Of a stretch of DNA of 64,000 bases, positions 4,521 through 48,945 are shown piece by piece. Under the pieces are notes generated by a model. It was not told the origin of the DNA. It worked only from the letters and a program-made list of their open reading frames with translations, and did no database searches. The stretch's first letter is position 1. Each line of letters starts with the position of its first letter. Both the position numbers and the translations under genes were made by a program. This stretch comes from Candidatus Uhrbacteria bacterium CG_4_9_14_3_um_filter_41_35 (lineage in GTDB: Bacteria > Patescibacteriota > Patescibacteriia > UBA9934), in NCBI GenBank assembly GCA_002791275.1, contig PFWT01000006.1, positions 8,831 through 72,830 of the forward strand, given 5' to 3'.

Positions 4521-5633
4521 CTAACGTTCGAGTGCAGTTTTTTGTAAAAACGCCTCAATAAATGGCTCAAGTTCACCATTTAAAACCCCCTCGACCGCCT
4601 GCGTCTCGTAGCCAGTACGATGGTCTTTGACCATTTTATAGGGGTGCAGAACATAGCTTCTGATCTGATTCCCCCACTCAGGCGCAATATGTCCACCTCT
4701 TAAATCTTTTATCTCTGCTTTTTGTTCAGCTAACATTTTCTGATACAGCCGTGATTTCAAAATTTTCATTGCTGTCATTTTATTCTGCCCCTGACTGCGT
4801 TCATTTTGAATCGACACCACGGTATTTGTTGGAATATGCGTAATGCGAACTGCTGAGTTAGTCGTATTCACACTCTGACCACCAGCCCCAGAAGAGGCAA
4901 ACGTATCTATTCGTAAATCTTTTTCATCGATTGCAATACTCGATTCCTGCACCTCGGAGAGCTCAGGAATTACCTCGCAAAGAGCAAAAGACGTGTGGCG
5001 CATTTTTTCGGCATCAAACGGAGAAATACGCACCAAACGGTGGACGCCAGCCTCGGCCTTCAAAAAACCATAAGCAAACCGACCACGCACAGCAAAAGTA
5101 ATACTTTTTATCCCCGCCCCCTCACCGAGCGACTGCTCTAAAATTTCAACTTGCCAATCTTTTGACTCAGCGTAACGGATAATCATTCGAAACAGCAGAC
5201 TAGCCCAATCCGATGCGTCGTCACCACCAGCTCCAGCGTGAAGTGAAATAATGGCGTCACCCTTATCGTGCTCACCGTCAAGTAGTGTACTGAACTCCAG
5301 TTTTTGAAGACGACTAGCAACTCCGTCCAGTTGATCTTTGATAACCGCCAACATTTCGGTATCATTTTCACTTTCCGCCAGTACCGCTACCTCACTAGCT
5401 TCGCGAAGTTCCGCTTGCAACTCTTCGTAAGCATCAATCTCTGATTTTATTTGAGACGCTTCCTGACCAATTTTTTTCGCCCGGTCCTGATCACTCCAGA
5501 AATTTGGCGCAGCCATTTGTTGTTCAAAATCCACAAGTTCAAGATACAAATTATCAATCTTCAAAATATCACGTACCTTTTGCAGTCGCGTAAGCAGATC
5601 TTTAATTTGTTTATCTTGAAAAGCCATATTCAT
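4521..5633 (-). CDS. prfB: Peptide chain release factor 2 (RF2), no programmed +1 frameshift
   Basis: GGQ motif (SGAGGQSVNTTNSAVRITHIPT), SPF-region homolog and full RF2 architecture. The N-terminal region is continuous in one frame, so there is no internal UGA frameshift site. The start was moved to the ATGAATATGGCT preceded by a GGGGG Shine-Dalgarno (the ORF track extended it to 5663). Confidence 0.9.
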   Translation of the reverse strand: MNMAFQDKQIKDLLTRLQKVRDILKIDNLYLELVDFEQQMAAPNFWSDQDRAKKIGQEASQIKSEIDAYEELQAELREASEVAVLAESENDTEMLAVIKDQLDGVASRLQKLEFSTLLDGEHDKGDAIISLHAGAGGDDASDWASLLFRMIIRYAESKDWQVEILEQSLGEGAGIKSITFAVRGRFAYGFLKAEAGVHRLVRISPFDAEKMRHTSFALCEVIPELSEVQESSIAIDEKDLRIDTFASSGAGGQSVNTTNSAVRITHIPTNTVVSIQNERSQGQNKMTAMKILKSRLYQKMLAEQKAEIKDLRGGHIAPEWGNQIRSYVLHPYKMVKDHRTGYETQAVEGVLNGELEPFIEAFLQKTALER

Positions 5634-11126: not shown

Positions 11127-11922
11127 AACTCTATCATTATAACAGAAACTAGACACAAAGTATTTCAACAATAAGATTCTTCGCCGTGATTCACGTTAGG
11201 CTCAAAATGACGCGGTTTGTAATTTTCATCGAGGTGCCAAACGTCAGTCTCAGAATGACGGTTTGGTTTTAATGATACGATGTGATTTTTATGCCGTTGT
11301 ATTGATTAGTCACCCTTCACTCATACCGTCATCCTGAAGCTGGCGACGACTTACGCTGAAGGATCTCCTTCGTTCCGTACTGAATCGAAACGCATTTACG
11401 ATATAATTCAACACTGAGATTCTTCGGTGTAATCCACGTTCACCTCAGAATGACGGTTTGGTTGGTTTAATGAGCTTAGCTTTGAACTTTATCCTTCACT
11501 CATACCGTCATCCTGAAGCTGGCGACGACTTACGCTGAAGGATCTCCTTCGCCCTGTGCTGAACCGACATTTGTTTGGTGATTCGGTAATGAGATTCTTC
11601 GGTGTGATTCACGTTCACCTCTGAATGACGGTTTAATTAGATTCTTCAATGTGCCAAACGCTAGGCTCTAAATGACGGTTTGGTTTCATGAGGACAATTT
11701 TATTCTATTGCTTCTCACCCATACCGTCATCCTGAAGCGAGCGCCAGGTTACGCTGAAGGATCTCCTTCGTTTAGCTGAACCGACATTTACTTAGTGATT
11801 CAGCAATGAGATTCTTCGGTATGGTCCACGTTCACCTCAGAATGACGATTTGGTGCGTTGTCTAGCTTATCCGATGTTGTAAAAATAAAATACAATCTTT
11901 GTGAGCATAAAATGCTCACAAA

Positions 11923-11973
11923 CTAAGACTGAGTTGCAGATGCGACTCAGTCGCATCTGCAACTCAGTCTTAG
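11923..11973. repeat. Perfect 24-bp-stem hairpin (ctaagactgagttgcagatgcgac-tca-gtcgcatctgcaactcagtcttag), preceded by an 8-bp-stem hairpin gtgagcat-aaa-atgctcac at 11901..11919
   Basis: Inverted repeat verified base by base. The identical stem occurs in copy 2 (38040..38090), but there the 3-nt loop is the reverse complement (tga). Confidence 0.9.
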
Positions 11974-11993
11974 ATAATAAATAATAAACTTGC

Positions 11994-12018
11994 AAATCAA
12001 ATCAAATCAAATCAAATC
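11994..12018 (+). repeat. (AAATC)5 pentanucleotide microsatellite; 3 perfect units in copy 2
   Basis: aaatcaaatcaaatcaaatcaaatc read directly from the sequence. Confidence 0.9.
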
Positions 12019-12116
12019 AAACCGTAACCCAGGCCTTGACTAGGGTCAATCAGTAAATTAACAAAGCTCTTTTCGTGACCTAAAACCTAACGCCCAATTC
12101 CTAACTCCTATAATAC

Positions 12117-18697: not shown

Positions 18698-21600
18698 TTA
18701 TAGATTTTTAGCCGAAATATCGAAGAATCGTTCAAAGAAACTTGTTAGCTTATTTAAAACATTTTCTCGTTTTTTGCCATAACCGCCATCAGGAGAAAAA
18801 CGAGATGGGCGATTTATCATTATTTTACTAATTACAGTACCGGTTGTCGCTACATTTCCGTCTCTAAAAGCATTATTTATGAATTTGTAGGTAGCTTCTG
18901 GGTCAAGGTTTTCATTTTCAATTATTTTGTTGAGTTCTTCAATTTTCTTTTCTTCTACAAATTTTTGCCAATCTTCATCAATGATTGAATGAACATCAAG
19001 AGAAGTAATAAATTTATTGATAAGATCTTTTTTATTTCGGAGTTCAACACTAGAATCAATGGCTTTATTAATATCAACTAAAAGCTCTTTGTTTTTAGTA
19101 TGATCTTCATGATAGTGCTTAATAAGACCTAGAACATAATCAATATTAATTTCTACTTGTTTAATAAGCTCCATTTCAAAGACCACATCGTCATTAACAT
19201 TTTCTTTTTCTCCCTCTTCACCTTTACGAAATTCATTATATAAATCAATGTACATGCTATGGTAATCTTGCACATCACGCTCAGTCAAAATTTCATTTCC
19301 TGCAAATTCATCAAAAGTTGTAAGGATGTTTCGGACACGCAAAACCGCTCCGTATGATCTAATAAAATCTGTTTGAATCTGCTCTCCTACAATCCTTTCT
19401 CCTACCGGGAAATTTTCCAAAAGCTCATCAATCAAACTTTTGTATCCTCGGACTTCTTTATCGTCGTCTTTATAACCATTGTAATAGTCATTATAAGCTT
19501 TAAGAAGAACAATCCCACTGGCTTCCTTATCTCCAAAAAGTGCAATAGATTCGTTTGTCGCTTTTTCTAAATTGCGAAAACAAACAATATTTCCAAAGGT
19601 TTTTACACTATTCAAAATACGATTAGTTCTAGAAAATGCTTGAAGTAAACCATGCAAACGCAAGTTTTTATCTACCCAAATGGTATTCAGAGTTGTAGCA
19701 TCAAATCCAGTCAAAAACATGTTTACTACAATCAGAATATCAATTTCTCTATTTTTAACTCGCTCACTAACATCTTTGTAATAGTTTTGAAATTTATCTG
19801 ACGAAGTATCATAAGAAGTGCCAAACATTTTATTGTAATCACTAATGGCATTTTCAAGAAAATCTCGAGAACTAATATCAAGTCCGCTTGTATCTTCAGA
19901 ATTTTCATCAATCATTCCGTCCGCGTCTTCATCATTTACTCCAAAACTAAAAATTGTTGCTATTTTAAGTCGTTTATCGCTAGGTTCGTCGGCTAATTGT
20001 TTTTTAAATTCAAGATAATACTTTTTTGCCACATCAATAGAAGAAACGGCGAAAATTGAATTAAAGCCCGCTAGTCTGCGATCCTGTATTTTATAAAAAC
20101 TATTTCGTTTGGTTTTTTGGTCAAAGTGTTCCCGAATATATTTCACAATGTTTTCCAGTCGCTCCGGTGCTGAAAGAACAGCCTCGCGATCAATATCACG
20201 AACTTGAGCGTCTTCAATATTTTCCGCTTCATGAACGGTTGAAACATAATCAACTTTAAACGGTAAAACATTTTTGTCAGCAATAGCGTTAACAATTGTA
20301 TAGGTGTGAAGTTTCTCGCCAAAAGCCTGCTCGGTAGTTTTAAAATCAAGCCGACCACCAGATGAAGAATTTACAGCAAAAATAGGCGTGCCAGTAAAAC
20401 CAAATAAATGATATTTACTAAATGCTTTTACAATACTTGCATGCATATCGCCAAATTGCGAACGATGACATTCATCAAAAATTAAAACAATATGACCGTC
20501 AAAAATAGTATGATTTTTATTTTTACTTATAAATCTATCTAATTTTTGAATTGTGGTAACGATTATTCGAGAGTTTGAATCTTCTAACTGTTTTTTTAAT
20601 TTAGCTGTACTCGTATTACTGTTCGCCGCCCCTTTTTCAAATTTATCGTATTCTCGCATTGTTTGATAATCCAAGTCTTTACGATCAACTACAAACAATA
20701 CTTTGTCTATATACGGCAATTTACTAGCCAACTGAGCAGTCTTAAAACTTGTCAAAGTTTTTCCCGATCCGGTTGTATGCCAAACATAACCGCCAGCCTC
20801 AACTGTTCCGAGTTTTTTATAATTTGTACTAACCTCAACCCTGTTCAATATTCGTTCGGTCGCAACAATTTGATATGGCCTCATTACCAAAAGTTGCTTT
20901 TCGGTAGTAAATACGCAATATTTAGTTAGAATATTTAAAATCGTATGCTTAGCAAAAAATGTTTTGGCAAAATCCATTAAATCAGTAATCGGCCGATTGG
21001 TTGCGTCTGCCCACCAGCTCGTAAATTCAAAACTATTGCTCGATTTTTTTCCTTTTTTAATTTTACCCTCGCTTGATTCTTTTATGTGTTGAAATCTGGT
21101 TGTATTGCTGTAATATTTTGTATGAGTTCCGTTTGAGATGATAAATAACTGCACATATTCAAAAAGTCCGCTGGAAGCCCAAAAACTTTCTCGTTGATAA
21201 CGATTAATTTGATTAAATGCTTCGGAAATAGCAACTCCACGGCGTTTTAACTCAATATGAATAAGAGGTAGTCCATTCACAAGTACCGTCACATCATAAC
21301 GATTAGCCCGCTGTCCGTCTTCGGTCGTATATTGATTAATTACTTGCAGGCTATTATTATGGACATTTTTCTTATCTATCAAGTCTATATTTTTAAAAGT
21401 TCCGTCATCTCGGTCTAATATTTTCGTGCTGTCTTCTTGAATAGTAGTGGTTTTTTCTTCAATACTCTGATTTGGATTAGCGATAACACTCACAAAAAAC
21501 TTTTCCCATTCAGTATCTGAAAAAGTAAAATTATTTAATTTTTCCAGCTGCTGACGCAAGTTTAACACCAATTCATTTTCTGAAGTGATATTCAAATATT

Positions 21601-21754
21601 CATACGCTTGAGTTTCCAGTTGCTTAATAAAAGCACGCTCAAGCTCGGCCTCACTTTGGTAGTGAGCCACTCTTTTTTCATCAGACACATACTCGGAAAC
21701 AACCGTGCTTTGTGTGCTTTCAGCGACTAAATTGTATTTGTTCTTATTTGGCAT
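18698..21754 (-). CDS. hsdR: Type I restriction enzyme R subunit (HsdR), type IC (EcoR124I-like)
   Basis: 1018 aa with DEAD-box helicase motifs (GSGKTLTSFK; FVVDRKDLDYQT; DECHRSQFG) and the PD-(D/E)xK nuclease region (NRYDVTVLVNGLPLIHIELKRRG). Long colinear identity to EcoR124I HsdR as recalled from memory. 11-bp overlap with hsdS. Confidence 0.95.
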   Translation of the reverse strand: MPNKNKYNLVAESTQSTVVSEYVSDEKRVAHYQSEAELERAFIKQLETQAYEYLNITSENELVLNLRQQLEKLNNFTFSDTEWEKFFVSVIANPNQSIEEKTTTIQEDSTKILDRDDGTFKNIDLIDKKNVHNNSLQVINQYTTEDGQRANRYDVTVLVNGLPLIHIELKRRGVAISEAFNQINRYQRESFWASSGLFEYVQLFIISNGTHTKYYSNTTRFQHIKESSEGKIKKGKKSSNSFEFTSWWADATNRPITDLMDFAKTFFAKHTILNILTKYCVFTTEKQLLVMRPYQIVATERILNRVEVSTNYKKLGTVEAGGYVWHTTGSGKTLTSFKTAQLASKLPYIDKVLFVVDRKDLDYQTMREYDKFEKGAANSNTSTAKLKKQLEDSNSRIIVTTIQKLDRFISKNKNHTIFDGHIVLIFDECHRSQFGDMHASIVKAFSKYHLFGFTGTPIFAVNSSSGGRLDFKTTEQAFGEKLHTYTIVNAIADKNVLPFKVDYVSTVHEAENIEDAQVRDIDREAVLSAPERLENIVKYIREHFDQKTKRNSFYKIQDRRLAGFNSIFAVSSIDVAKKYYLEFKKQLADEPSDKRLKIATIFSFGVNDEDADGMIDENSEDTSGLDISSRDFLENAISDYNKMFGTSYDTSSDKFQNYYKDVSERVKNREIDILIVVNMFLTGFDATTLNTIWVDKNLRLHGLLQAFSRTNRILNSVKTFGNIVCFRNLEKATNESIALFGDKEASGIVLLKAYNDYYNGYKDDDKEVRGYKSLIDELLENFPVGERIVGEQIQTDFIRSYGAVLRVRNILTTFDEFAGNEILTERDVQDYHSMYIDLYNEFRKGEEGEKENVNDDVVFEMELIKQVEINIDYVLGLIKHYHEDHTKNKELLVDINKAIDSSVELRNKKDLINKFITSLDVHSIIDEDWQKFVEEKKIEELNKIIENENLDPEATYKFINNAFRDGNVATTGTVISKIMINRPSRFSPDGGYGKKRENVLNKLTSFFERFFDISAKNL

Positions 21755-22865
21755 ATTCTTTTTCTTTGAAAGTTAAAAGTTTCCCGCGGTAATATTCATA
21801 TTGCTGTCTGCGAGCTTTGAGTTCAGCGGGAAGACCGATTGAAATGTCATTTACAAGTGCATCAAATTTGTCGAGGATTGAAACTATTCTTTTTTGTTCG
21901 GTAAGTGGAGGTGTTGGGATTTTTATTTGATTTAAAATTGCCTGAGTTAAACTTGGACGTCCTGATCCTGTATCCAATTTCATTAAATCAACAGTTTTCA
22001 AATAGTGAAATAAAAACTTTGGAATAATTTTTTCTTCGTTTATTTCAGTATAATAAATAGTATCTACATTCCAAAACGGATCCTCTAAATAGTAAAGGTT
22101 TGTAATACTTCCTTTTCTTGGAATTAAAACAGTAGGCTTATCGTAGACCGATTTATTTACATAACCCATAACCCCTCCTGTGCCATAAACAGGAATTTTA
22201 CCATTTCCTAACTTCTTCCAGTCTTTTCCATTCTTAATCTTTGCAACACCTTGTAGTAAATCCCATTTTGAATTCGCATCAAAAGTCAACAACTCATTGC
22301 GATAATGCTCATACTGCTTTTTTCTTGCTTCCAGTTCTGCTTCCAGTTCTGCTTCCAGTTCTGCTTCCAGTTCTGTAAAACTATTAAGAATTTTAACAAT
22401 TTCTTCTTGGATGGCAAGAGGTGGGATGGGGATTAAAGTTTTTTTCAGAAAACTAAAGTGTCTTGTGTATTTACCTGTTTTTGAATAAAAATTATTTAAA
22501 GCATAGTAAAAATATTTTATATTTAATATATTTGAATTTGTTTTTAGAATTTTAATACCGTCCGCCCCTTGAGCAAAAGAAAAATCAATATATTTTAGTG
22601 CCTCAGTGTGGTCTCCGAAAATAACATATAAATCTTTAGCCATAACTGCAGCATTATCATCAGTATAGCCAACAATAAAATCTTGTCCTTGATCTATGAT
22701 AGGAAATTCACCTATTTCCTTGTAGTATTTTTTTGTAAGCTTTTTAGGAGGAGCACAGGTTGTTACGATTTTATTTATAAGCAAATTATCAATATCAAAA
22801 AACTCCACACCTGCTGGGCATAGTTCTGAGATTAGTTTTTCGATTTTTGGTTGGTTGGTTGTCAT
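21744..22865 (-). CDS. hsdS: Type I restriction-modification specificity subunit (HsdS), type IC-like with (ELEA)4 central repeat
   Basis: Two target-recognition halves, each ending in a conserved coiled-coil (ELEARKKQYEHYRNELLTF and ELKARRQQYEYYRGKLLTF). A central tandem 4-aa repeat TELEAELEAELEAELEA is encoded by a 12-bp DNA repeat. 373 aa. Confidence 0.85.
   Translation of the reverse strand: MTTNQPKIEKLISELCPAGVEFFDIDNLLINKIVTTCAPPKKLTKKYYKEIGEFPIIDQGQDFIVGYTDDNAAVMAKDLYVIFGDHTEALKYIDFSFAQGADGIKILKTNSNILNIKYFYYALNNFYSKTGKYTRHFSFLKKTLIPIPPLAIQEEIVKILNSFTELEAELEAELEAELEARKKQYEHYRNELLTFDANSKWDLLQGVAKIKNGKDWKKLGNGKIPVYGTGGVMGYVNKSVYDKPTVLIPRKGSITNLYYLEDPFWNVDTIYYTEINEEKIIPKFLFHYLKTVDLMKLDTGSGRPSLTQAILNQIKIPTPPLTEQKRIVSILDKFDALVNDISIGLPAELKARRQQYEYYRGKLLTFKEKEYAK
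22321..22385 (-). repeat. 12-bp tandem repeat (ttccagttctgc)x4 plus a degenerate fifth unit inside hsdS; encodes ELEA repeats in the central spacer-length-determining region
   Basis: Direct reading: cttgc TTCCAGTTCTGC x4 TTCCAGTTCTGT. Confidence 0.9.
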
Positions 22866-24328
22866 ACTAATAATGGAATTAAAGATTCAATGGAAGTTTT
22901 AAGTTCTTCATCTGTAAATTTTGTATTATTTGGATTTTCGGGGTGGTGAATTATATTTCTAATTTTAGTGGGTAAGGTAGTATTGTATTCAATAACGGTT
23001 TTGTCTGACTTTAAATGTTTATACTTTTTGTCTATTTTAATAGCTTCACCACTTTTATTAAAAAGATATTTATCAAAATCTTCTGATTTACAATATTTCT
23101 CGTCTTCTAAAATAGCTTTTGCTTGAATAAAACCATAAAGCTCGTTGTGAAATTCAACAGATAAAACGCCAAACGCATAATAATTAATTTCCCCCCAAGA
23201 AGGACTTGAGGATCCAAACAAATCGAATTCATTGCCAGCTTCAACTTTGTTCATTCCTGAATCTTTTGAGAATATATTCATTGAATGGGTTTCTTTTTTA
23301 TATTTTTTCAATAAATATGGTGAGTGAGTAATTATAAAAATTTGTGACTTGTCGGATATTTTTTCAAGGGCGTCAAGAAGTTTGTTTTGAGCTTGCGGAT
23401 GTAAAAAAGTTTCTGGCTCATCAATAAAAAATAGTATTGGTTTAGAAATTCCGTTTTCATCTGATGAAGAAATATCAGCATACACTTGAATAAGTGCTAA
23501 TGCTAAGGCTCGTTGCATTCCTGTACCTTTTTCAGAACTTTTTGTTTCAATGCCATTTTCAGATAGAGCAATATTCCCCGTTTTGAAAAAACTCTCAATT
23601 TCAGGTAATAAAAAACTAAATCTTACTTCTGTTTCTCCGTACTGTTCAGACAAAATACTTTGTATTTTTTGTTCAACTGGTTGTAGCGTTTTAGCTAAAC
23701 TATTTTCGCCCTCTCCAAAAGTTTCTTTATGAGAATTTTGAAAATTTCTCCAAGTATCAGAAGTAATAAAATCTTTTGTTATCGTATTTATAATTTTTCC
23801 GCTAATTTTTGTTTTTGAAAAATCAGAAATATCACCAGAATTTGTATCAGCCCAAACAAACTGTGCATCAAAAAGTGCCGTAATTGTATTATCTATTCCT
23901 GTAGGATTCTCAAATTGGTTTGCAGTTGGATTAAACACACGAACATTTTTAATATCAAGCTTCTTTTTCTTTCCGTCTTGTGTAATTTCTTTTTCTTCGC
24001 TAGAACGCATTATGCGTAAACTTTTTTCACCATTAGTATCAATGAGGGAAGATTTATATTTTTTTAAGGCATCTATTTCAACAATAGATTCAATATCCTC
24101 ACCTTTGAATTCAATTTCAATAGAAACAAAACTATCTGTTTCAATTTCTGTCTTAGTGATGACTTCACTTCTATCCTTTTTTGAGCGTATAAAGTCAATA
24201 GCTTCAAAAACTGATGATTTGCCACAATTATTGTCACCAACAAAAAAATTCACGCCTTTGTCAAAAAGAATTTCGTGATCACCTTTAAAGCCTTTAAAAT
24301 TATGGAGTTTTATTTTTGATATATACAT
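22862..24328 (-). CDS. ABC-type ATPase fused to a C-terminal HEPN-like (Rx4H) domain; PrrC/RloC-like putative anticodon nuclease / restriction-linked abortive-infection protein
   Basis: Walker A FVGDNNCGKSS, ABC-signature-like SEKGTGMQRA, Walker B PILFFIDEPETFLH and H-loop IITHSP. The ~145-aa C-terminal domain carries KIRNIIHHPENPN (R-x4-H). 4-bp overlap with the hsdS start. 488 aa. Confidence 0.55.
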   Translation of the reverse strand: MYISKIKLHNFKGFKGDHEILFDKGVNFFVGDNNCGKSSVFEAIDFIRSKKDRSEVITKTEIETDSFVSIEIEFKGEDIESIVEIDALKKYKSSLIDTNGEKSLRIMRSSEEKEITQDGKKKKLDIKNVRVFNPTANQFENPTGIDNTITALFDAQFVWADTNSGDISDFSKTKISGKIINTITKDFITSDTWRNFQNSHKETFGEGENSLAKTLQPVEQKIQSILSEQYGETEVRFSFLLPEIESFFKTGNIALSENGIETKSSEKGTGMQRALALALIQVYADISSSDENGISKPILFFIDEPETFLHPQAQNKLLDALEKISDKSQIFIITHSPYLLKKYKKETHSMNIFSKDSGMNKVEAGNEFDLFGSSSPSWGEINYYAFGVLSVEFHNELYGFIQAKAILEDEKYCKSEDFDKYLFNKSGEAIKIDKKYKHLKSDKTVIEYNTTLPTKIRNIIHHPENPNNTKFTDEELKTSIESLIPLLV

Positions 24329-24337
24329 AATTTTTAA

Positions 24338-24420
24338 TGATTTTTTTCAATATCCGCCATAATCTCATCAATCGCCGTCCTAAGCTCATTTTGCCCCACT
24401 GCAATTTTTAATTTCGCGTT
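24338..24420 (-). pseudogene. 3'-terminal remnant of an hsdM gene (encodes ...KIAVGQNELRTAIDEIMADIEKNH*); there is no start codon, and a stop lies a few codons upstream
   Basis: Nucleotide and peptide similarity to the 3' end of the intact hsdM at 25487.. (IVARQNELRNAIDEIVVDIEGTN*). It has the same spacing to the downstream gene start as hsdM has to dinD. Confidence 0.65.
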
Positions 24421-24628
24421 TGTTATATTATATTTCAGCCATTTTACAAGCTAACTGAATCTCTTCATCTTGGCTTTCTAACCACAGATCAACGTCTAAC
24501 TTATGTTCAGTTTTATTTTGGCTAATCATCTCCAATACAGGTTTTTTGTATTTAGATCAATAAATTTGGCACCATTATTGTCCTCAAAGAATTTTAATAC
24601 GTTTTCTACATTTATTGGATTTTTCATA

Positions 24629-25477
24629 TTATCCTTCATTATCCTTTAAAAATTTTTTATCATCATTCCCAAGATAGTTTTTCTCACTAATTACACTTCT
24701 ACCAAGCTCTTTTTCAGTTTCCTTCCTCGCGTTGCCTGCCACCTTACCACCTCTTTTGGCTACTCTTTTACTTTCAGTAATTCCTTTTGGTTTTTCTTGA
24801 CTCGATATTTCCGTGGTAACTTTTTCGCCAAGCATTGTAAAAATAAGCTCGAGATCCGTCATATTGTCTCTAAGATTTGCCTTAGATTTATCGGGAATAT
24901 TTTTGAGCTTCATATATTCGCTCGGCGTCATTCCAAAAGTCGCTTTGCTGATTTCTGCGGTCAAAATAGCATAGTCTCTTTGCTCTGTGATTCCTCTCTG
25001 TTTCCATTCATCCGTTAAATTTTGACGGATAGCAATTCCACGAAGTCTTTTGTCTATCCAATCTTGAGGATAGCCCTTTGCTTCATAGAGCTTTTTCATT
25101 CTTTCTTGGGCCAGTTCTGGATTTTCTATTTCCTCGATTCTTTCATAACCCACTTTGGCAAGCCACCTTTTGAAAGGTTCAGCTTTTGGAGAAGGGATGG
25201 ACTGGATAATTCTTAAAATCCCTTCAGTATTTGCACAATCTGTTTCTCTCATTTTTCCGTCTGGTGCAAGGAGTTTCAACCCGTGACAAAATGTCACGAC
25301 TTCACTTCCTTCTTCATTAAGTCTCTGTTTTAATTTTCTCCAATAAGCTCCCGCATCAGGACTTTCTGTAAGAGCAAAACATATATCAACGACCGAAAAA
25401 TACCATTCTTCATTATGCCAAATTTTACGAATTTGTTTTTTTTCAAACAGTGCGATTTTGTTGTGAGTATTTGCCAT
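24629..25477 (-). CDS. DinD-like / Bro-N domain protein (DNA-damage-inducible protein D family)
   Basis: N-terminal Bro-N-like segment (KIALFEKKQIRKIWHNEEWYFSVVDICFAL). The C-terminal region (KSKANLRDNMTDLELIFTMLGEKVTTEI; basic tail KRVAKRGGKVAGNARKE) resembles E. coli DinD as recalled from memory. 282 aa, 9 bp downstream of hsdM. Confidence 0.6.
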   Translation of the reverse strand: MANTHNKIALFEKKQIRKIWHNEEWYFSVVDICFALTESPDAGAYWRKLKQRLNEEGSEVVTFCHGLKLLAPDGKMRETDCANTEGILRIIQSIPSPKAEPFKRWLAKVGYERIEEIENPELAQERMKKLYEAKGYPQDWIDKRLRGIAIRQNLTDEWKQRGITEQRDYAILTAEISKATFGMTPSEYMKLKNIPDKSKANLRDNMTDLELIFTMLGEKVTTEISSQEKPKGITESKRVAKRGGKVAGNARKETEKELGRSVISEKNYLGNDDKKFLKDNEG

Positions 25478-25486
25478 ATTACTATT

Positions 25487-27064
25487 TTAGTTAGTTCCTT
25501 CAATATCCACCACAATCTCATCAATCGCATTTCGAAGCTCATTTTGCCTTGCGACAATTTGGGAAATTTTACTGTTAAGTTCTTTTATATCAATTATTTC
25601 GCGAGTATCTTCTGCTACTACATAACTTGATACTGCAATATTATAATCATTTTCGCTAATAGTTTTATTATCCACCAGTTTTGCAAAATACTCTGTGTCT
25701 TTACGCTCAATAAACGCATTAAGAATTTTTTTGCGATTTTCTTCACTTAATTTGTTTTTATTTCCACCTCGCACAAATTCTTTAGAAGCGTCTATAAACA
25801 AAGTCTTATTATCTTTTTTACTTTTTTTCAATATAACAACACAGGTTGCGATAGTTGTTCCGAAAAAGAGATCGGGCGGTAATTGTATAACTGAATCTAT
25901 GTAGTTATTATCAATCAAATATTTACGGATTTTTTGTTCAGCTCCACCACGATAAAGAACCCCCGGAAATTCAACAATTGCCGCGGTTCCGCTGGTTGAG
26001 AGCCAAGAAAGCATGTGCATGGTAAACGCTAGATCTGCCTTGCTTTTTGGTGCCAAAACTCCTGCGGGAGAAAAACGAGGATCATTTATTATTAAAGGAT
26101 TGGCATCGCCGTCCCACTTGATTGAATATGGCGGATTGGAAACAATGGCGTCAAAAGGTTCATCGTCCCAGTGTTTTGGATCAGTAAGAGTATCACCATG
26201 GGCAATATCAAAATTGTTATAATTGATATCATGCAAAAACATGTTTATACGGCAGAGGTTGTAGGTAGTGAGGTTTATTTCCTGTCCGTAGAAACCAAGA
26301 CGAACATTGTCTTTACCGAGCACTTTTGCAAATTTAAGAAGAAGTGAACCGGAACCGCAACAAGGATCATAAACTTTATTTACTTCTGTTTTACCAACGG
26401 TTGTAATTTCAGCCAAAAGTTCACTTACTTCTTGAGGGGTAAAAAATTCTCCTCCAGATTTACCAGCATTTGAAGCATACATGGTCATCAAAAATTCATA
26501 AGCATCACCGAAAGCGTCAATTGTGTTATCTCCATAATCACCCAAGCGAAGATCACCGATAGCTTCTAACAGTTTTACAAGTTTTTGATTTCTTTTCTCA
26601 ACTGTTCCGCCTAGCTTATTTGAGTTCACATCCAAGTCATCAAACAATCCTTTAAGATCGTCTTCGCTATCAAATCCTTTGGCAGAATTTTCGATATTAT
26701 CAAAAACCTTAGAAAGTGTTTCGTTAAGCTTTGCATCGCTACGGGCATTTTTATGAACATTTATAAAAAGTTCGCTCGGCAGAATATAAAAACCTTTATT
26801 AATTATTGTTTCTATTCTACCAAATTCCGCTTCTTTATCACTCAACTTAATATAATCAAATTGTTCTTGTCCGAAAACTCGCCTTTCATCTTCATTGATA
26901 AAGTTAGTTAGATTTTCGCTAATGAAACGATAAAAAAGCATTCCAAGAACATACTGTTTAAAATCCCAGCCGTCGACACTTCCTCGCAAGTCATTCGCAA
27001 TTTGCCAAATAGCACGATGTAACTCCGAGCGTTCTTGCTCTTTTGTTGTATTTAAATTTGTCAT
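25487..27064 (-). CDS. hsdM: Type I restriction-modification N6-adenine DNA methyltransferase (HsdM), type IC (EcoR124I-like)
   Basis: Motif I DPCCGSGSLLL and motif IV VSNPPYSIKW. N- and C-terminal regions colinear with EcoR124I HsdM (recalled). 525 aa. Confidence 0.95.
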   Translation of the reverse strand: MTNLNTTKEQERSELHRAIWQIANDLRGSVDGWDFKQYVLGMLFYRFISENLTNFINEDERRVFGQEQFDYIKLSDKEAEFGRIETIINKGFYILPSELFINVHKNARSDAKLNETLSKVFDNIENSAKGFDSEDDLKGLFDDLDVNSNKLGGTVEKRNQKLVKLLEAIGDLRLGDYGDNTIDAFGDAYEFLMTMYASNAGKSGGEFFTPQEVSELLAEITTVGKTEVNKVYDPCCGSGSLLLKFAKVLGKDNVRLGFYGQEINLTTYNLCRINMFLHDINYNNFDIAHGDTLTDPKHWDDEPFDAIVSNPPYSIKWDGDANPLIINDPRFSPAGVLAPKSKADLAFTMHMLSWLSTSGTAAIVEFPGVLYRGGAEQKIRKYLIDNNYIDSVIQLPPDLFFGTTIATCVVILKKSKKDNKTLFIDASKEFVRGGNKNKLSEENRKKILNAFIERKDTEYFAKLVDNKTISENDYNIAVSSYVVAEDTREIIDIKELNSKISQIVARQNELRNAIDEIVVDIEGTN

Positions 27065-36361: not shown

Positions 36362-37504
36362 ATGTCATTAAAGCAGCACGAACAATTTTTGCAAACTCTT
36401 GAGCAGTCAAAAAGACCGCTTATTGTGCTTCCTGAAAAAGCAAATGAAGACGATTTCGCTTCAGCTTTTGGTGTTGCTGGATTACTTTCAAAGTTAAACA
36501 AACCAGTTGACATTGCTTCAGCCGGTGGTGCCTCTCCGCAAAGTTTAAATTTTCTAAAGAGCGCACAAAAAATAAAAGGTGACCTGCCAAATATCCGGAA
36601 GATGACCCTAACCCTAAAAACACAAACAGCAAAAGTGGACGAACTTTCTTACCGGGTTGAGGGCGACACTCTGCAAATAAATATTGTTCCAAAAACCGGA
36701 GCCTGGACAGCGGAAGATGTAAAGATTGTGACCGACAGCTACAAATACGATTTAATTATTTCAATTGGCGCTAAAGAGCTGGAACATTTCGGCAAGCTTC
36801 ACGAGCTTTACGCAGATTTTTTCTTTTCAGTGCCAATCATCAACATCGACCACACCACAGACAATGAATTTTTTGGCCAAATGAATTTGGTCGATATAAA
36901 TGCTGTTTCGAGTTCTGAAGTGATTCACGGACTATTTAAAGAAATAGATCCCGGACTAATTGATGAAGAAATCGCTACGTATTTTCTTACTGGAATTATC
37001 TATAAAACAAAAAGTTTTCGAAATGAAAATGTAACACCTCAAACACTCAAAGTTGCCGGAGAACTTATTGCTCGCGGAGCTAGGCGAGACGAGATTGTTA
37101 AAAATCTTTACAAAACCAGAACCGTGGAAACACTACGCCTCTGGGGCAGAGCGCTAGCCAGACTTAAATCCGATGACAGCCTTGGTTTTGTGTGGACACT
37201 CCTTAGTCGCCAAGACTTTATAAACGCTGGAGCCGACGAAACTGCGCTCGAAAATGTAATCGAAGAACTGATGATGACATCACCGGACGCCAATGTTGCA
37301 GCCGTTTTCTACGAGGAAAAAAATAATAATGTTCGAGCGTTCCTTCACGCCAGCAGACCGTACGACGCACTCTTGCTCGGTGCCCCCTTCTCTGCCTCCG
37401 GAACCAGAGAACGGGCTTTTCTCAACTTAAAAGAAGACAGTCTAGTTAAAGCCGAGAAACGAGCCATTACGCACATAAAAACACAACTAAAAGAATCACG
37501 CTAA
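36362..37504 (+). CDS. DHH/DHHA1-family phosphoesterase-like protein (NrnA-like; DHH motif degenerate: IDHT)
   Basis: Overall NrnA-like architecture with NIDHTTDNEFFG in place of the canonical DHH motif; 380 aa. Assignment tentative. Confidence 0.5.
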   Translation: MSLKQHEQFLQTLEQSKRPLIVLPEKANEDDFASAFGVAGLLSKLNKPVDIASAGGASPQSLNFLKSAQKIKGDLPNIRKMTLTLKTQTAKVDELSYRVEGDTLQINIVPKTGAWTAEDVKIVTDSYKYDLIISIGAKELEHFGKLHELYADFFFSVPIINIDHTTDNEFFGQMNLVDINAVSSSEVIHGLFKEIDPGLIDEEIATYFLTGIIYKTKSFRNENVTPQTLKVAGELIARGARRDEIVKNLYKTRTVETLRLWGRALARLKSDDSLGFVWTLLSRQDFINAGADETALENVIEELMMTSPDANVAAVFYEEKNNNVRAFLHASRPYDALLLGAPFSASGTRERAFLNLKEDSLVKAEKRAITHIKTQLKESR

Positions 37505-38190
37505 CCGTGATTTTTTGTGTCGTTATTTTGACTAGTCGCCCCGCACCCATACCGTCATCCTGAAGCGAGCGACGATTCACGCTGAAGGATCTCCTTCGCC
37601 CTGTGCTGAACCGACATTTGCTTGGTGATTCGGTAATGAGGTTCTTCGGTGTGATTCACGTTCACCTCAAAATGACGGTTTACTTAGGTTCTTCAATGTA
37701 ACTCACACCAGGCTCTGAATGAGGATATGATGAAATTCTTCGCCGTGATTCATACTAGACTCAGAATTACGGTTTGGTTTTTAGTAGTGCGATGTGATTT
37801 TTATGTCGTTATTTTGACTAGTCACCCCTCACCCATACCGTCATCCTGAAGCGAGCGACGATTCACGCTGAAGGATCTCCTTCGCCCTGTGCTGAATCGA
37901 CATTTGCTTGGTGATTCGGTAATGAGATTCTTCGGTGTGATCCACGTTCACCTCAGAATGACGATTTGGTGCGTTGACTAACTAGTCAATATTGTCATAA
38001 ACAAAAACACAATTCTTGTGAGCATAAAATGCTCACAAACTAAGACTGAGTTGCAGATGCGACTGAGTCGCATCTGCAACTCAGTCTTAGATAATAAAAA
38101 AACACCGCAATCAAATCAAATCAAATCAAATCAAACCGTAACCCAGGTCTTGGCCAGGGTCAATCAGTAAATTTAAAAAGCTCCTTTTAT
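37505..38190 (+). repeat. Composite ORF-free mosaic repeat element, copy 2. It has two ~290/185-bp direct sub-repeats containing the A and B modules, the 8-bp hairpin (38018..38036), the perfect 24-bp-stem hairpin (38040..38090, loop tga), (AAATC)3 and the same conserved tail.
   Basis: Direct comparison with 11172..12075: module B (cacccataccgtcatcctgaagcgagcgacgattcacgctgaaggatctccttcgccctgtgctgaaccgacatttgcttggtgattcggtaatgag) is repeated at 37543 and 37835. The hairpins and tail match copy 1 nearly base for base. Confidence 0.85.
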
Positions 38191-38254
38191 AGCCTAAAGC
38201 CTAATACAAAAATGCATTCCTATTTTTTACACAAAGTGGTATAATTTTTTTTAA

Positions 38255-39718
38255 ATGGGAGGTATTCTTCAGACATATGCCAGACAGTCAGCACCGCCGG
38301 AGCACCGGGTGGAACTTTTTGTTCGTGGAGAAACACGACTTACCTGGATAGGCTTACTTTTTAATGAATATCCGAACGCTGAAGTTTACCTAGTTGGCGG
38401 AACTCTGCGTGACATTATTCTCGGTCGCGTACCAAACGACATCGATCTTTTAGTTCGTAACGTACCACCTGCAGAACTCGATATCTGGCTAAACGCACAC
38501 GGCGCTTCTGAATTTGTGGGTAGGTTTGGAACTTACAAGTTTGTGCCACACGGGAATGTAAATAAACAAGCAATCGACATCGCGCTACCTCGAACCGAAC
38601 GCAAACTGGAAGATCACGCTGGCGGGCGTCGTGATATGGATGTTTCTTTTGATTACAAACTGCCGATTAAAGACGACCTAGCTCGGCGTGATTTTACAAT
38701 TAACGCCATGGCCTACAACATTAAAACTGGTCGGCTCATTGACCCCTTTCTTGGCCTTCAGGATTTATACAACGAACTTATTAACGCTGTACTTGTACCA
38801 GCGACCAGGTTCGAAGAAGACGCTACGCGCTTACTTCGTGGTCTGCGCTTTGCAAGTCAGCTTAATTTTGGAATTGAAAAACTTACTTGGCAAGCAATTC
38901 TAGCTAACATCGAGCTACTCAATAAAAAAGCGCCAACCGAAGACGGTACCCGAGCCTACATTGTGCCCCGTGAAGCAATTGGCCGCGAGTTTATTCTGGG
39001 TTTTATGGAGCACCCCGTGCACACGCTTCGACTCTGGAGTGAATCAAAGGCACTCCATATGTTCATGCCAGAACTTGCCGAACTAGAATTTAAAAATGAC
39101 AACGAACTGCAAAAAACACTCAATCTTCTAAATACCCTCAAAAACAAATCTTTTATCGCCAGTTACGGATACTTGAACACTCCTCTTAATGTGCTCGTGG
39201 CTGGTCTCATGGTCTTTACACACGGCGATAAGCACAAGCACGCGCACAATATTTGTACAAAACTTCACTTCCATCAATTTCCACCTGACCATAAAGCAAG
39301 TATGAATTGTGAAACAATTAAGTGGTTAGTCGAACACGTTGATATGTTCGAGGAAATTGATCCAGCGAGTATTCGACCAAGTCAATTTGAAAAAATGTTT
39401 CTTTCAAAACGCGGTCAGGAGCTTCTACTGCTGATGCATGCCAAACATATTGCTAGCGCTAAACACAGTGTGGCAAGAGAAAGGCTCCATACGGCTCGGC
39501 GGATTAAAGACGCTATGCAAACTATATTTGCAGATAGTGATCTAAATGGTAGATTACCACAATTAATTTCTGGCCGAGATATTCAAGAGTTCGGGATTCT
39601 GCCTGGCCCAACCTATCGTGAAATTTTAGACGAAGTTCGCGATGCTCAACTAGCTGGTGAGATTGTTTCTTTCGATGACGCAAAAACTTTCTTACGCCAT
39701 ATTGTAAATAAAATATAA
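38255..39718 (+). CDS. cca: CCA-adding tRNA nucleotidyltransferase / poly(A) polymerase-family protein with HD domain
   Basis: Head-domain motif YLVGGTLRDIILGRVPNDIDLLV and RRDFTINAMAY; C-terminal HD-like region; 487 aa. An A-rich promoter with TATAAT lies at ~38249. Confidence 0.8.
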   Translation: MGGILQTYARQSAPPEHRVELFVRGETRLTWIGLLFNEYPNAEVYLVGGTLRDIILGRVPNDIDLLVRNVPPAELDIWLNAHGASEFVGRFGTYKFVPHGNVNKQAIDIALPRTERKLEDHAGGRRDMDVSFDYKLPIKDDLARRDFTINAMAYNIKTGRLIDPFLGLQDLYNELINAVLVPATRFEEDATRLLRGLRFASQLNFGIEKLTWQAILANIELLNKKAPTEDGTRAYIVPREAIGREFILGFMEHPVHTLRLWSESKALHMFMPELAELEFKNDNELQKTLNLLNTLKNKSFIASYGYLNTPLNVLVAGLMVFTHGDKHKHAHNICTKLHFHQFPPDHKASMNCETIKWLVEHVDMFEEIDPASIRPSQFEKMFLSKRGQELLLLMHAKHIASAKHSVARERLHTARRIKDAMQTIFADSDLNGRLPQLISGRDIQEFGILPGPTYREILDEVRDAQLAGEIVSFDDAKTFLRHIVNKI

Positions 39719-47310: not shown

Positions 47311-48945
47311 CTATGGAGTTGGAGAAATTAACTTTTGTGCGGCATCCGTTGCTTTACTCATATTAGAACTCGGCGCTCCACTTGTGAAACCAACATTCTG
47401 ACAGTCGAAAGCTACGAACTTATCTGGACCAAAAATTCCCAGTGCCGTAACTTTTATATAGCCATTTTCTAAATCGTTCACCGTCAATTCTTTAGTCGCG
47501 CAACTACCCCCAGCGTCCTTCGCAATATTACAAACATCTTTCCCACACACTGAATCAAAAAGTTTCTTATACTCCTCGTGATTCACGAAATCTGTTGGAA
47601 CATACCAGTAAAGAAAACCGAACTGAGTAGATAATTCTGAAGTGGTAATACCTGACAAATTTCTAGTAGTAAACTTATTTGCCCTAGTCCCAAGATAAGT
47701 GTAGGCCGAACAACCTTCATCTCCATGTTCCGCTTTTAATATATTGCAATCTAGCCCATTGTCCGCATGCTTGTAGTAAACCTCGACACACCTGTCTATC
47801 GGTACCGAACTTAAAACCGATGCATTAAAATAATGACACGAGGACTTAACACCATCCTTAACTTCGAGATTACTTAGTGCTGCACACGTTGATTGTGAAG
47901 GTTTCGGCGGTACATCTGTGGTTCTGTAACCAATCTCCCCGCAGGTATAGCAAGCGTAGTTGTGCTCTGTGTCTTGCAAACACTCCTCGGTCTTTCCGGG
48001 ACACTCAAAGTATGTGCAGGTATCTCCCACCACAAAACCATCCGAACCCTGCAGTTCATCTCCGTTTGCACTAACTATGCTTGTGATCACTCCCTTTTTA
48101 CCGCAGAGCGCCTGACTTTCCATTGTAATTGTAAAAATGACATCCTTTCTTTCAGACAGTGCAGTACATCCAAGGCTCTTATCTACATAATCCATCTCCC
48201 TTATTTTCGGTACACCTAAATTTTTAAACTTAACTACACTTGGATCAATAAGAGTTCCGAGAGTAACAGCAAAGAATAATAAAGTGAGCCCAATAATCAC
48301 TGAGTTAATTCTCTGTTTAGCTTTACTGATTTCATTTTCGCGACCACGGGCCAGCATCCACTCAACGCCAGCGACCATAATCATCACTATCGCAATTAAA
48401 GCTCCAGCACCGAGCAAAAAATCATAAACCGCGTTTATATATTCACCAAGATTTCCTGATTTTTTAAGACTCCCAATTGGGACCCCTAAAGTTACCTTTG
48501 TTGAACCGCCGAAATCTGGAATATAACCAGACGGATTATAACAATACCCTTGGCCCGGCAAACAAAAATTTTCCTGCCCTCCCCAAACCGAAGGTTCAGG
48601 TTCTGCCTTATCCTCAACTGGTCTTCTATCCGAAGAACAGGCCGCAGCTGTCCAGCACATCTTATTATTTTCCGGTCGGTTATCTACCTGATCTTGGTTG
48701 TAACAACCAAGTGTACTAATGCCCGGGCCTTTGCATAAGTTTCTACACTCCTCTATCCCTGCAACCGCAGTTTTTTTCTCAGCCCCATTTTCGGTTTTGC
48801 AAAAACAGTCACAAGAAGATATATCTCCTGATGTTGTGGTTTTCGCCCCCACAAAAGAAGAGGTACCTGCGAATCCGATACTAATTACAATTATTAAGGC
48901 AAATTTAAACAGGGTTTTAAACATATTAAACAAATTATAGCACAA
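47311..48945 (-). CDS. Cys-rich secreted/membrane protein with a central two-TM segment reminiscent of TrbC/VirB2-type pilins
   Basis: Signal peptide; about 150-aa Cys-rich N-terminal domain; TM pair (LLGAGALIAIVMIMVAGVEWML ... VIIGLTLLFFAVTLGTLI); about 300-aa C-terminal domain with more than 20 Cys; 544 aa. Family assignment is speculative. Confidence 0.45.
   Translation of the reverse strand: MCYNLFNMFKTLFKFALIIVISIGFAGTSSFVGAKTTTSGDISSCDCFCKTENGAEKKTAVAGIEECRNLCKGPGISTLGCYNQDQVDNRPENNKMCWTAAACSSDRRPVEDKAEPEPSVWGGQENFCLPGQGYCYNPSGYIPDFGGSTKVTLGVPIGSLKKSGNLGEYINAVYDFLLGAGALIAIVMIMVAGVEWMLARGRENEISKAKQRINSVIIGLTLLFFAVTLGTLIDPSVVKFKNLGVPKIREMDYVDKSLGCTALSERKDVIFTITMESQALCGKKGVITSIVSANGDELQGSDGFVVGDTCTYFECPGKTEECLQDTEHNYACYTCGEIGYRTTDVPPKPSQSTCAALSNLEVKDGVKSSCHYFNASVLSSVPIDRCVEVYYKHADNGLDCNILKAEHGDEGCSAYTYLGTRANKFTTRNLSGITTSELSTQFGFLYWYVPTDFVNHEEYKKLFDSVCGKDVCNIAKDAGGSCATKELTVNDLENGYIKVTALGIFGPDKFVAFDCQNVGFTSGAPSSNMSKATDAAQKLISPTP

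Follow-up and report, generated by a model that had tools for sequence, protein, structure and literature searches.

The question raised by positions 37505 to 38190 of the 64,000-nt stretch of Candidatus Uhrbacteria DNA analyzed here (the window) is what kind of repeat this region represents and whether it forms a pair with a similar region located upstream. The sequence-only reading had described it as the second copy of a mosaic repeat element, lying in direct orientation 26 kb from the first. We found that the region is very probably a non-coding mosaic array of the repetitive extragenic palindrome (REP) type and of the CGTC kind, similar to bacterial interspersed mosaic elements (BIMEs) and to the intergenic mosaic elements of Neisseria (NIMEs), and the second such cluster in the window. 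A second mosaic copy is indeed present, and the similarity of its tail to copy 1 continues to position 38204, about 14 nt beyond the end first given. Only open reading frames (ORFs) of at most 50 amino acids overlap the arrays of copy 1 and copy 2. The two-copy framing, on the other hand, had to be given up: the hairpin repeats form a dispersed family with many arrays, of which the window holds two that are not a functional pair, and their tail occurs in at least a third locus.

A fuzzy search with the head shared by the modules retrieved 15 hairpin units of 39 to 40 nt in the window, all of them within the two loci. With up to two mismatches allowed, the unit head CGTCATYCTGARG matched the window 16 times, against 3.3 ± 1.9 times in shuffled sequences, and 13 of these matches fell in the two loci. 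The modules that had initially been listed as separate entities are largely one kind of unit placed on opposite strands. Five units (B), all on the + strand, read CGTC-ATCCTGAAGCG-(12 nt)-CGCTGAAGGAT-CT, and ten units (A), all on the - strand, read CGTC-ATTCTGAGGTG-(11 nt)-CACCGAAGAAT-CT. Both follow the same plan, in which an unpaired CGTC tag precedes a stem of 11 positions that opens with an A-T and then a T-A pair, carries a tandem G·A/A·G mismatch, and is closed by a top of 11 to 12 nt. The G·A step follows the motif YCTGARG ... CYGAAGR, the mismatch context being 5'-YGAR-3', and the units end in ...GAAGRAT-CTC or CTY. At the unit start, the tag was CGTC in 13 of the 15 units, CCTC in one, and CGTA in one. 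Each of the five B units is followed, 44 to 50 nt on, by an inverted A unit, with the CGTC tags pointing outward and the spacer between them conserved. Between these dimers come additional A monomers and a leader module.

The B units continue as CTCCTTCG, a sequence able to pair back on GAAGGA. Together with the 3' arm of the B unit, this invariant sequence makes up a second, smaller palindrome, GAAGGA-TC-TCCTTC followed by a T-run, which we observed in every B unit (at 37578 to 37600 in the first B unit of copy 2, and at 5493 to 5508 of metagenome contig L136) and which would compete with the main stem. In many units from other phyla, ctcttc likewise comes next.

To ask which of the possible folds has been conserved, we aligned 16 distinct B-spacer-A dimers taken from the window and from related metagenome contigs. 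The stems within the units were paired in 93.8% of the cells. The first stem pair was A-U in all 16 B units and in 15 of the 16 A units, and the second pair was U-A in 16 of 16 for both. In 7 of the 16 dimers, two pairs of the A unit were exchanged on both sides (GC to CG and UA to CG), and the covariation score of the intra-unit stems was above that of all 500 shuffles. The energy model, using nearest-neighbor parameters, instead folds the dimer as one long B:A hairpin (z = -1.9 and -3.3). No covariation was found for this long hairpin, since 270 of 500 shuffles reached its score. Furthermore, the change between the A1 and A2 subtypes breaks the long hairpin at two pairs in 7 of 16 cells and is compensated for within the unit's own stem. 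Because covariation supports the intra-unit stems and not the long B:A hairpin, we conclude that conservation acts on the hairpin of the unit, the long hairpin arising as a by-product of placing the units in inverted orientation.

Two other candidates for the units were considered and rejected. A hammerhead-like core (CUGANGA...GAAA) does not fit, the B units reading CUGAAGC with a G and not an A at position 15.1, and a clustered regularly interspaced short palindromic repeat (CRISPR)-like array was discarded because the units are inverted and irregularly spaced. Rfam held no family for the hairpin units, either in a gathering-threshold scan of the window, in an E-value scan of positions 37400 to 38300, or at 18 other loci.

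Copy 2 can be written as leader / B+ A- A- A- / leader / B+ A- / tail. The first leader module (GTGATTTTTTGTGTCGTTATTTTGACTAGTCGCCCCGCACCCATA; 37505 to 37552, + strand), recognized as a repeat family and by self-alignment of the spacer, recurs ahead of B units at 37772 to 37838 and, in copy 1, at 11262 to 11326. It is followed by a B unit (37553 to 37592, + strand; stem pairs kept in 94% of cells in the 16 dimers), by the conserved 46-nt B-A spacer (CCTTCGCCCTGTGCTGAACCGACATTTGCTTGGTGATTCGGTAATGAG; 37593 to 37638, + strand), and by the inverted A partner (37639 to 37677, - strand), which completes a head-to-head dimer with the tags outside. Two extra A units then follow on the - strand, a degenerate one with the tag CCTC (37686 to 37724) and one with the tag CGTA and an inner stem GCC/GGC (37733 to 37771). 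The second leader module (37772 to 37838, + strand) starts a second 286-nt block, in which a B unit identical to the first (37839 to 37878, + strand) is again joined by the spacer (37879 to 37924, + strand) to its A partner (37925 to 37963, - strand). The two long direct sub-repeats, which had been noticed as carrying module B at 37543 and 37835, correspond to 37507 to 37681 and 37794 to 37967; they are 94.9% identical with a period of 286 nt. The array closes with the tail module (37964 to 38204, + strand).

The modules of copy 2 and its tail of about 240 nt are shared with positions 11172 to 12090, in direct orientation and about 26.1 kb away. In a repeat search of the window, the start-to-start offsets of the repeat families ranged from 26,047 to 26,117 nt and all were direct, in good agreement with the orientation and distance first proposed. 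Copy 1 reads A- A- / B+ A- / B+ A- A- / B+ A- / tail. Its array of nine units spans 11174 to 11847, with A units on the - strand at 11174 to 11212, 11222 to 11260, 11417 to 11455, 11592 to 11630, 11639 to 11677, and 11809 to 11847, and B units on the + strand at 11327 to 11366, 11506 to 11545, and 11725 to 11764. Copy 2 has six units in a different order, so that the description as a mosaic and not a simple duplication was correct. The best collinear stretch pairs 11714 to 12090 with 37828 to 38204 (87.4% identity over 382 nt, with 9 gaps), and the longest exact matches between the copies are 49, 42, and 39 nt. Copy 1 lies between yidC and an LPG-synthase-like gene, both on the - strand, and copy 2 between the DHH gene and a PolyA_pol-domain gene, both on the + strand.

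We then asked how far the arrays extend beyond the window. A metagenome scan with the head of the B unit returned 17 loci. At least nine further distinct arrays of 2 to 11 units each, all intergenic, lie on contigs with a G+C content of 0.40 to 0.44. Neither in DNA nor in protein did the flanks of these arrays have anything in common with the window, and no orthology with window genes was found. One of them, located between dnaB and an aromatic amino acid permease gene that are divergently oriented, also bears the tail and comes from the same samples as the window contigs. This third locus is represented by contig L136 (5397 to 6297) and, as the same locus, by L148 to L152 (L148, 3082 to 4000); it contains (AAATC)8 and an inverted B unit beyond the tail. 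A 218-nt block of it is missing in three assemblies (L153, L154, and the hybrid contig L014 discussed below) and present in six others, a difference that may be either a real copy number polymorphism, as in NIME arrays, or an assembly collapse. On L148, another array (282 to 583) lies upstream of recR-ybaB-dnaB; it shares 80% identity with a portion of the array located 2.9 kb from it.

To determine whether the unit occurs in other bacteria, we scanned one genome per species with the exact pattern CCGTCATYCTGARG-N14-22-GAAGRATCT and obtained at least 115 loci, whereas by our own arithmetic about one match would be expected by chance in 596 Gb. Matches were found in Acidobacteriota, Planctomycetota, Omnitrophota, Bacteroidales, Chloroflexota, Nitrospirota, Proteobacteria, Thermotogae, and others; those in Patescibacteria include Uhrbacteria, Kerfeldbacteria, and Saccharibacteria. 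Among the matches listed, the 113 distinct interiors were self-complementary though their sequences differ (mean z = -1.9, with 43% below -2), and the pair beside the G·A step covaried (GG..CC in 56, AG..CT in 11, and GG..CT in none). A looser definition of the unit gave 278 units at these loci, against one in shuffled sequences. About 88 of 115 neighboring pairs at the loci listed from other phyla were oriented with the tags outside, at gaps of 0 to 100 nt, and the partner unit was often a short form, [C/T]GTCATYCTGAGCGMAGCGAAGRATCTC. Alphaproteobacterial units read CGTCATTGCGAGCGAAGCGAAGCAATCC, which we mention as background and not as a test.

Viruses were searched as well. The arm of the tail palindrome described below had no match in viral contigs. 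In the 2.9 million viral contigs of IMG/VR, the unit pattern gave 20 matches (L158 to L177), all from one virus lineage and all the same 37-mer with identical flanks; its interior lacks self-complementarity. The match is probably due to chance, and the unit is essentially absent from these contigs.

The tail requires separate consideration. Three-way alignment delimited it in copy 2, in copy 1 (11848 to 12090, + strand), and at the third locus (L136/L148), the only three known loci that carry it, out of at least 11 arrays. Within the tail, a core of 82 nt, TGTGAGCATAAAATGCTCACAAA-CTAAGACTGAGTTGCAGATGCGACT[C/G]AGTCGCATCTGCAACTCAGTCTTAG-ATAATAAA, is identical at 81 to 82 of 82 positions in all pairs of the three tails, whereas the sequence on either side is 65 to 84% identical. 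The core folds as a 10-bp and a 24-bp hairpin, with z = -15.7 for both together. In copy 2, the small hairpin (about 10 pairs and a 3-nt loop in the predicted fold) lies at 38016 to 38038 and the larger one, a perfect 51-nt palindrome with a 24-bp stem and the center tGa, at 38040 to 38090; the equivalent positions in copy 1 are 11899 to 11921 and 11923 to 11973, the latter with the center tCa.

As the sequence-only reading had stated, the two palindromes are identical save for the center. It had taken the change from tca to tga as consistent with inversion of the hairpin or recombination through it, and this part has to be qualified. In a perfect palindrome with an odd number of bases, the difference amounts to one C/G transversion at the center of symmetry; inversion is a possible cause of it but is neither needed nor observed. 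The center base was invariant at each locus, G in nine of nine assemblies of copy 2 and C in five of five of copy 1, and the third tail has C; inversion of the palindrome within the population was therefore rejected. The (AAATC) microsatellite of copy 2 (38109 to 38135, + strand) had been counted as three units, against five in copy 1 (11994 to 12018). It consists of four perfect units after a truncated AATC, and the five units of copy 1 were found as stated. Tandem Repeats Finder gave 5.4 copies over 27 nt for copy 2 and 5.8 copies over 29 nt for copy 1. In all assemblies, the number of units was fixed for each locus, at five (copy 1), four (copy 2), and eight (third locus), and a phase-variable microsatellite was likewise rejected. 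Since both the center base and the microsatellite length are invariant at each locus, there is no sign of ongoing inversion or phase variation.

Could the two copies result from a duplicated or collapsed contig join? The 750-nt spacer containing copy 2 was reproduced with 100% identity by nine contigs that differ in sample and assembler, and the 1025-nt spacer containing copy 1 was identical in three full assemblies and one partial assembly. The assemblers covered were JGI, MEGAHIT, and SPAdes, and both window arrays were invariant in all assemblies compared. Several contigs (L010 and L013) do end inside arrays, as is typical of repeats and as an artefact might predict. However, independent assemblies reproduce both spacers base for base, the copies differ by about 13%, and each has unique flanks on both sides. 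A faulty join, which had been named as what would overturn the observation, is thus excluded as far as the assemblies show, and we consider it extremely improbable. A different proposal is that the direct copies recombine and thereby amplify or delete the 26-kb segment between them. RecA-type recombination is physically plausible, given the direct orientation, the 87% identity over 382 nt, and the exact match of 49 nt. One contig even shows that such junctions can be assembled: across nusA-yidC, L014 (ENA ERZ27293359 k141_815510, 1235 to 1800) matches the window at 100% identity, and beyond it matches the dnaB/permease contig equally well, switching inside the identical 82-nt tail core and joining copy 1 to the third locus. 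As a single contig among about 20 for that gene, and one that also has the collapsed 218-nt block, L014 is most simply a chimera, a rare real exchange between tails being the other way to read it. In contrast, no junction between copy 1 and copy 2 was present in the approximately 45 contigs read. The bracketed segment runs, as had been noted, from yidC/nusA to valS and the DHH/NrnA-like gene and contains the genes for the arginyl-, tyrosyl-, and valyl-tRNA synthetases (ArgRS, TyrRS, and ValRS), NusA, YidC, and tRNAs. Because these essential genes lie between the copies, stable deletion is implausible, as already anticipated, and recombination of the segment is on the whole a very unlikely account of the arrays.

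Two further explanations concern what is being multiplied. The B-spacer-A dimer (about 130 nt, with the ends ACCGTCAT...ATGACGGT) could be a non-autonomous transposon similar to REP doublets forming hairpins (REPINs) or to miniature inverted-repeat transposable elements (MITEs), folding as a long hairpin and mobilized in trans by a REP-associated tyrosine transposase (RAYT), by an IS200-type HUH enzyme acting on single-stranded DNA, or by another enzyme; the arrays would then be insertion pile-ups. The terminal inverted repeats that bound the dimers (ACCGTCAT/ATGACGGT), their dispersal at many unrelated sites, the predicted single long hairpin, and the dominance of tags-outside dimers across phyla all speak for this, and REPINs are the mobilized unit of GTAG REPs (PMC3733652). 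However, the long hairpin lacks covariation and is broken by the A1/A2 change, no direct duplication of the target site was seen by eye at the dimer ends, and conserved modules also flank the dimers, which makes the repeated block larger than the dimer. Moreover, none of the 50 ORFs scanned against Pfam in the 64-kb window has a transposase or recombinase domain, and CGTC REPs are reported to lack a dedicated transposase (PMC3733652). We therefore regard a transposon as rather unlikely. The other explanation takes the tail as the functional part and the arrays as mere neighbors, the 82-nt core being a small structured RNA of the - strand or a bidirectional terminator or insulator. A promoter-like TTGATT-17-TATTAT, which is speculative, lies on the - strand at 38091 to 38119 and ends directly upstream of the palindrome. 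The same motif, with a spacing of 16, 17, or 18 nt, stands just before the palindrome on the - strand in all three tails, and two terminator-like hairpins with T-rich tails then follow on that strand. A small RNA would accordingly comprise the -10 box TATTAT, the perfect 24-bp hairpin, the 10-bp hairpin, and a T-run, and judged by its sequence the layout of the core may be that of a small RNA gene or of a strong terminator. The near identity of the core at three loci within more divergent sequence and the very low z score of its fold favor this explanation. Conversely, promoter-like motifs were not more numerous than in shuffled sequences in the regions of the two window loci (2 versus 1.7 and 4 versus 2.8), Rfam returned only generic long-hairpin (microRNA) models far below threshold for the palindrome, the tail accompanies only a minority of the arrays, and recent gene conversion between the copies could equally yield the identity of the core. 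A functional tail with incidental arrays is in our judgment also rather doubtful. A bolder combination, which we hold to be quite unlikely, is that the core itself, unchanged at three or more loci of a genome of about 1 Mb, is functional, as a small RNA gene with a near-perfect duplex product (an RNase III-type substrate) or as a cruciform or recombination site, while CGTC-type hairpins separately multiply in the genome, possibly without an HUH or other transposase. If the latter were true, ordinary host replication and repair functions would propagate a pan-bacterial hairpin.

The classification as a REP-type mosaic array of the CGTC kind has weak points of its own, which we gather here. The extra arrays may stem from co-occurring relatives and not from this very genome. 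The covariation within the lineage may reflect only one or two events (the A1 and A2 subtypes), and single units are thermodynamically ordinary, with z of about -0.5. The generality of the G·A step across phyla is partly a matter of ascertainment because the search pattern fixes that step. The published CGTC families 1 to 4 have stems of 8 to 9 bp, loops of 4 to 5 nt, and an unpaired 3' tail with the consensus CCA (PMC3733652), whereas the units described here have a stem of 11 positions with two non-Watson-Crick pairs, a top of 11 to 12 nt, and a 3' tail CTC. Mobility, transcription, and an effect on neighboring genes are none of them shown here. Finally, the array model leaves the tail and its invariant 82-nt core unexplained, and this is the sole feature of which this is true.

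If the REP-type reading is correct, propagation or selection would act on the hairpin unit, with the conserved tag and stem base presumably serving as a recognition determinant on single-stranded DNA or RNA for some factor. The arrays would grow and shrink locally through whole blocks of 180 to 290 nt (leader-B-spacer-A-(A)n), a block duplication of this kind being visible in the anatomy of copy 2, and the route could be unequal homologous exchange or replication slippage. Block-wise duplication and deletion would therefore give rise to the mosaic order and the differing unit numbers. Related arrays occupy numerous intergenic positions, unrelated to one another, in the same or sister genomes. 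By analogy with REPs, BIMEs, and NIMEs, effects on the host are probably modest, and the arrays may be largely selfish or neutral. Candidate effects would be hairpins in the 3'-untranslated regions of transcripts, pausing, termination, protection from exonucleases, and the provision of recombination substrates, any single function being far less certain than the classification itself.

Several other features of the window were recorded. Its ValRS, NusA, and GroEL proteins match those of Candidatus Uhrbacteria bacterium CG_4_9_14_3_um_filter_41_35, a bacterium of the Candidate Phyla Radiation, exactly. A terminator-like hairpin read from the sequence (AATCACG-CTAAC-CGTGATT followed by a T-run; 37494 to 37520, + strand) overlaps the stop codon of the DHH/NrnA-like gene, and the array of copy 2 begins directly after it; its stem was also listed on the complementary strand in a scan. 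The divergent DHH protein itself (380 amino acids; 36362 to 37504) had no Pfam match even at E ≤ 10 and matched solved NrnA/DHH phosphoesterase structures at an E value of 4e-10. A type I restriction-modification operon occupies 18698 to 27064 on the - strand, with hsdR at 18698 to 21754, hsdS at 21744 to 22865, and hsdM at 25487 to 27064. It is interrupted by genes for an AAA_15/AbiEii-like ATPase (22862 to 24328) and a Bro-N domain protein (24629 to 25477). The G+C content of this stretch is 0.31 to 0.37, compared to about 0.41 elsewhere, and it looks like a defense islet placed within the operon. On each side of the Bro-N gene, at the gene boundary, lies one copy of a direct repeat of 76 nt (79% identical; 24332 to 24407 and 25485 to 25560); these copies may delimit an insertion into the hsd operon. 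Inside hsdS, a perfect 12-nt tandem repeat (4.2 copies; 22326 to 22375) encodes (ELEA)x4. This resembles the TAEL repeats of the EcoR124I specificity subunit, in which the repeat number sets the length of the spacer in the recognition site, and by this analogy the hsdS repeat could act as a switch for variable specificity. Lastly, a protein of 544 amino acids (47311 to 48945) contains a TrbC/VirB2-type pilin domain of type IV secretion (residues 164 to 233) and is unusually long for a pilin.

Overall, the window contains repeat DNA of an ordinary and known type, in a host that is unusual; it goes beyond what chance would produce and is not a paired functional system. The points of modest interest are the presence of arrays in a streamlined genome, the pan-bacterial G·A stem base, and the invariant two-hairpin core of the tail. 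Clusters of CGTC-type REPs, so far known mainly from Proteobacteria and a few other phyla, would be extended to the Candidate Phyla Radiation, and one stem base, including the tandem G·A step, is common to very distant phyla. CGTC REPs are not known to have a dedicated transposase that would spread them, and the many arrays in a genome of about 1 Mb offer a compact setting in which to look for proteins able to recognize the hairpin. The arrays also break, and occasionally mis-join, metagenome assemblies of this lineage, and claims of synteny or rearrangement near them need spanning reads.

How do these arrays compare to known repeat systems? Literature searches with strings of the unit sequence returned only unrelated primers and constructs, and the term "repetitive extragenic" was not found in the top-ranked literature on Patescibacteria or the Candidate Phyla Radiation. 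The pneumococcal BOX elements (boxA-boxB(n)-boxC) are likewise modular intergenic repeats in which module number varies, but their modules are collinear and not inverted hairpins, and they bear no sequence relation to the units found here. The BIMEs of Escherichia coli are closer, consisting of palindromic units in alternating orientation with conserved linkers in non-coding stretches after genes; however, E. coli REPs carry a GTAG tag and are linked to RAYT transposases. The REPINs of Pseudomonas share with the B-A dimers an inverted doublet with a spacer that is predicted to fold as one long hairpin. They differ in that the long hairpin has no covariation here, the tag is CGTC and not GTAG, and no RAYT/Y1_Tnp domain is encoded in the window.

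A stronger likeness is seen with NIMEs, in which dRS3 elements and RS spacer repeats form long arrays at fixed positions with varying repeat number, and which in 2007 were thought to be unique to Neisseria (PMC1797815). Both are intergenic arrays of short CGTC-type inverted-repeat hairpins with families of spacer repeats of 50 to 150 bp, and both have other repeats embedded in them. The fixed position with a varying number of repeats may also have its counterpart here in the 218-nt block of the dnaB locus, for which collapse is possible. Unlike NIMEs, the arrays do not contain the dRS3 sequence ATTCCC-N8-GGGAAT, the units reading ATYCTGARG...CYGAAGRAT, and the B and A units alternate between strands. 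Moreover, dRS3 is an integration site for phages and insertion sequences, and nothing similar was seen here.

The closest relatives are the CGTC-tagged REPs surveyed by Di Nocera, De Gregorio & Rocco in 2013 (PMC3733652). These have an unpaired terminal CGTC, or also TGTC or CCTC, and stems that almost invariably begin with A and T at positions 1 and 2. Most of them form head-to-head dimers, that is, with the tags outside, separated by spacers of 20 to 100 bp that are often conserved, and heterodimers are frequent. They are intergenic, lie mostly between unidirectional or convergent genes, and occur in distant phyla (PMC3733652). The window arrays agree with this description in their tag, the A-T/T-A opening of the stem, the head-to-head dimers, the common heterodimers, the intergenic location, and the occurrence in distant phyla, and their spacers of 44 to 50 nt fall within the published range; among the 50 window ORFs scanned, no transposase was seen next to them. 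Copies 1 and 2, with neighbors on the same strand, also fit the gene context, whereas the genes on either side of the third locus are divergent. The units are as a rule clustered here, which is rare in the published families save in Neisseria and Wolbachia, the CGTC-1 family being equated with the dRS3 of Neisseria, which is clustered in mosaic arrays (PMC3733652, PMC1797815). The host, a bacterium of the Candidate Phyla Radiation, belongs to a phylum outside that survey. Because their stem, loop, and tail dimensions differ and the dRS3 sequence is missing, we did not file the arrays in any of the four described CGTC families. We rather consider them a variant of the CGTC-REP and mosaic-array kind, set apart by its dimensions, which is in agreement with the expectation that further CGTC classes with unusual structure exist (PMC3733652).

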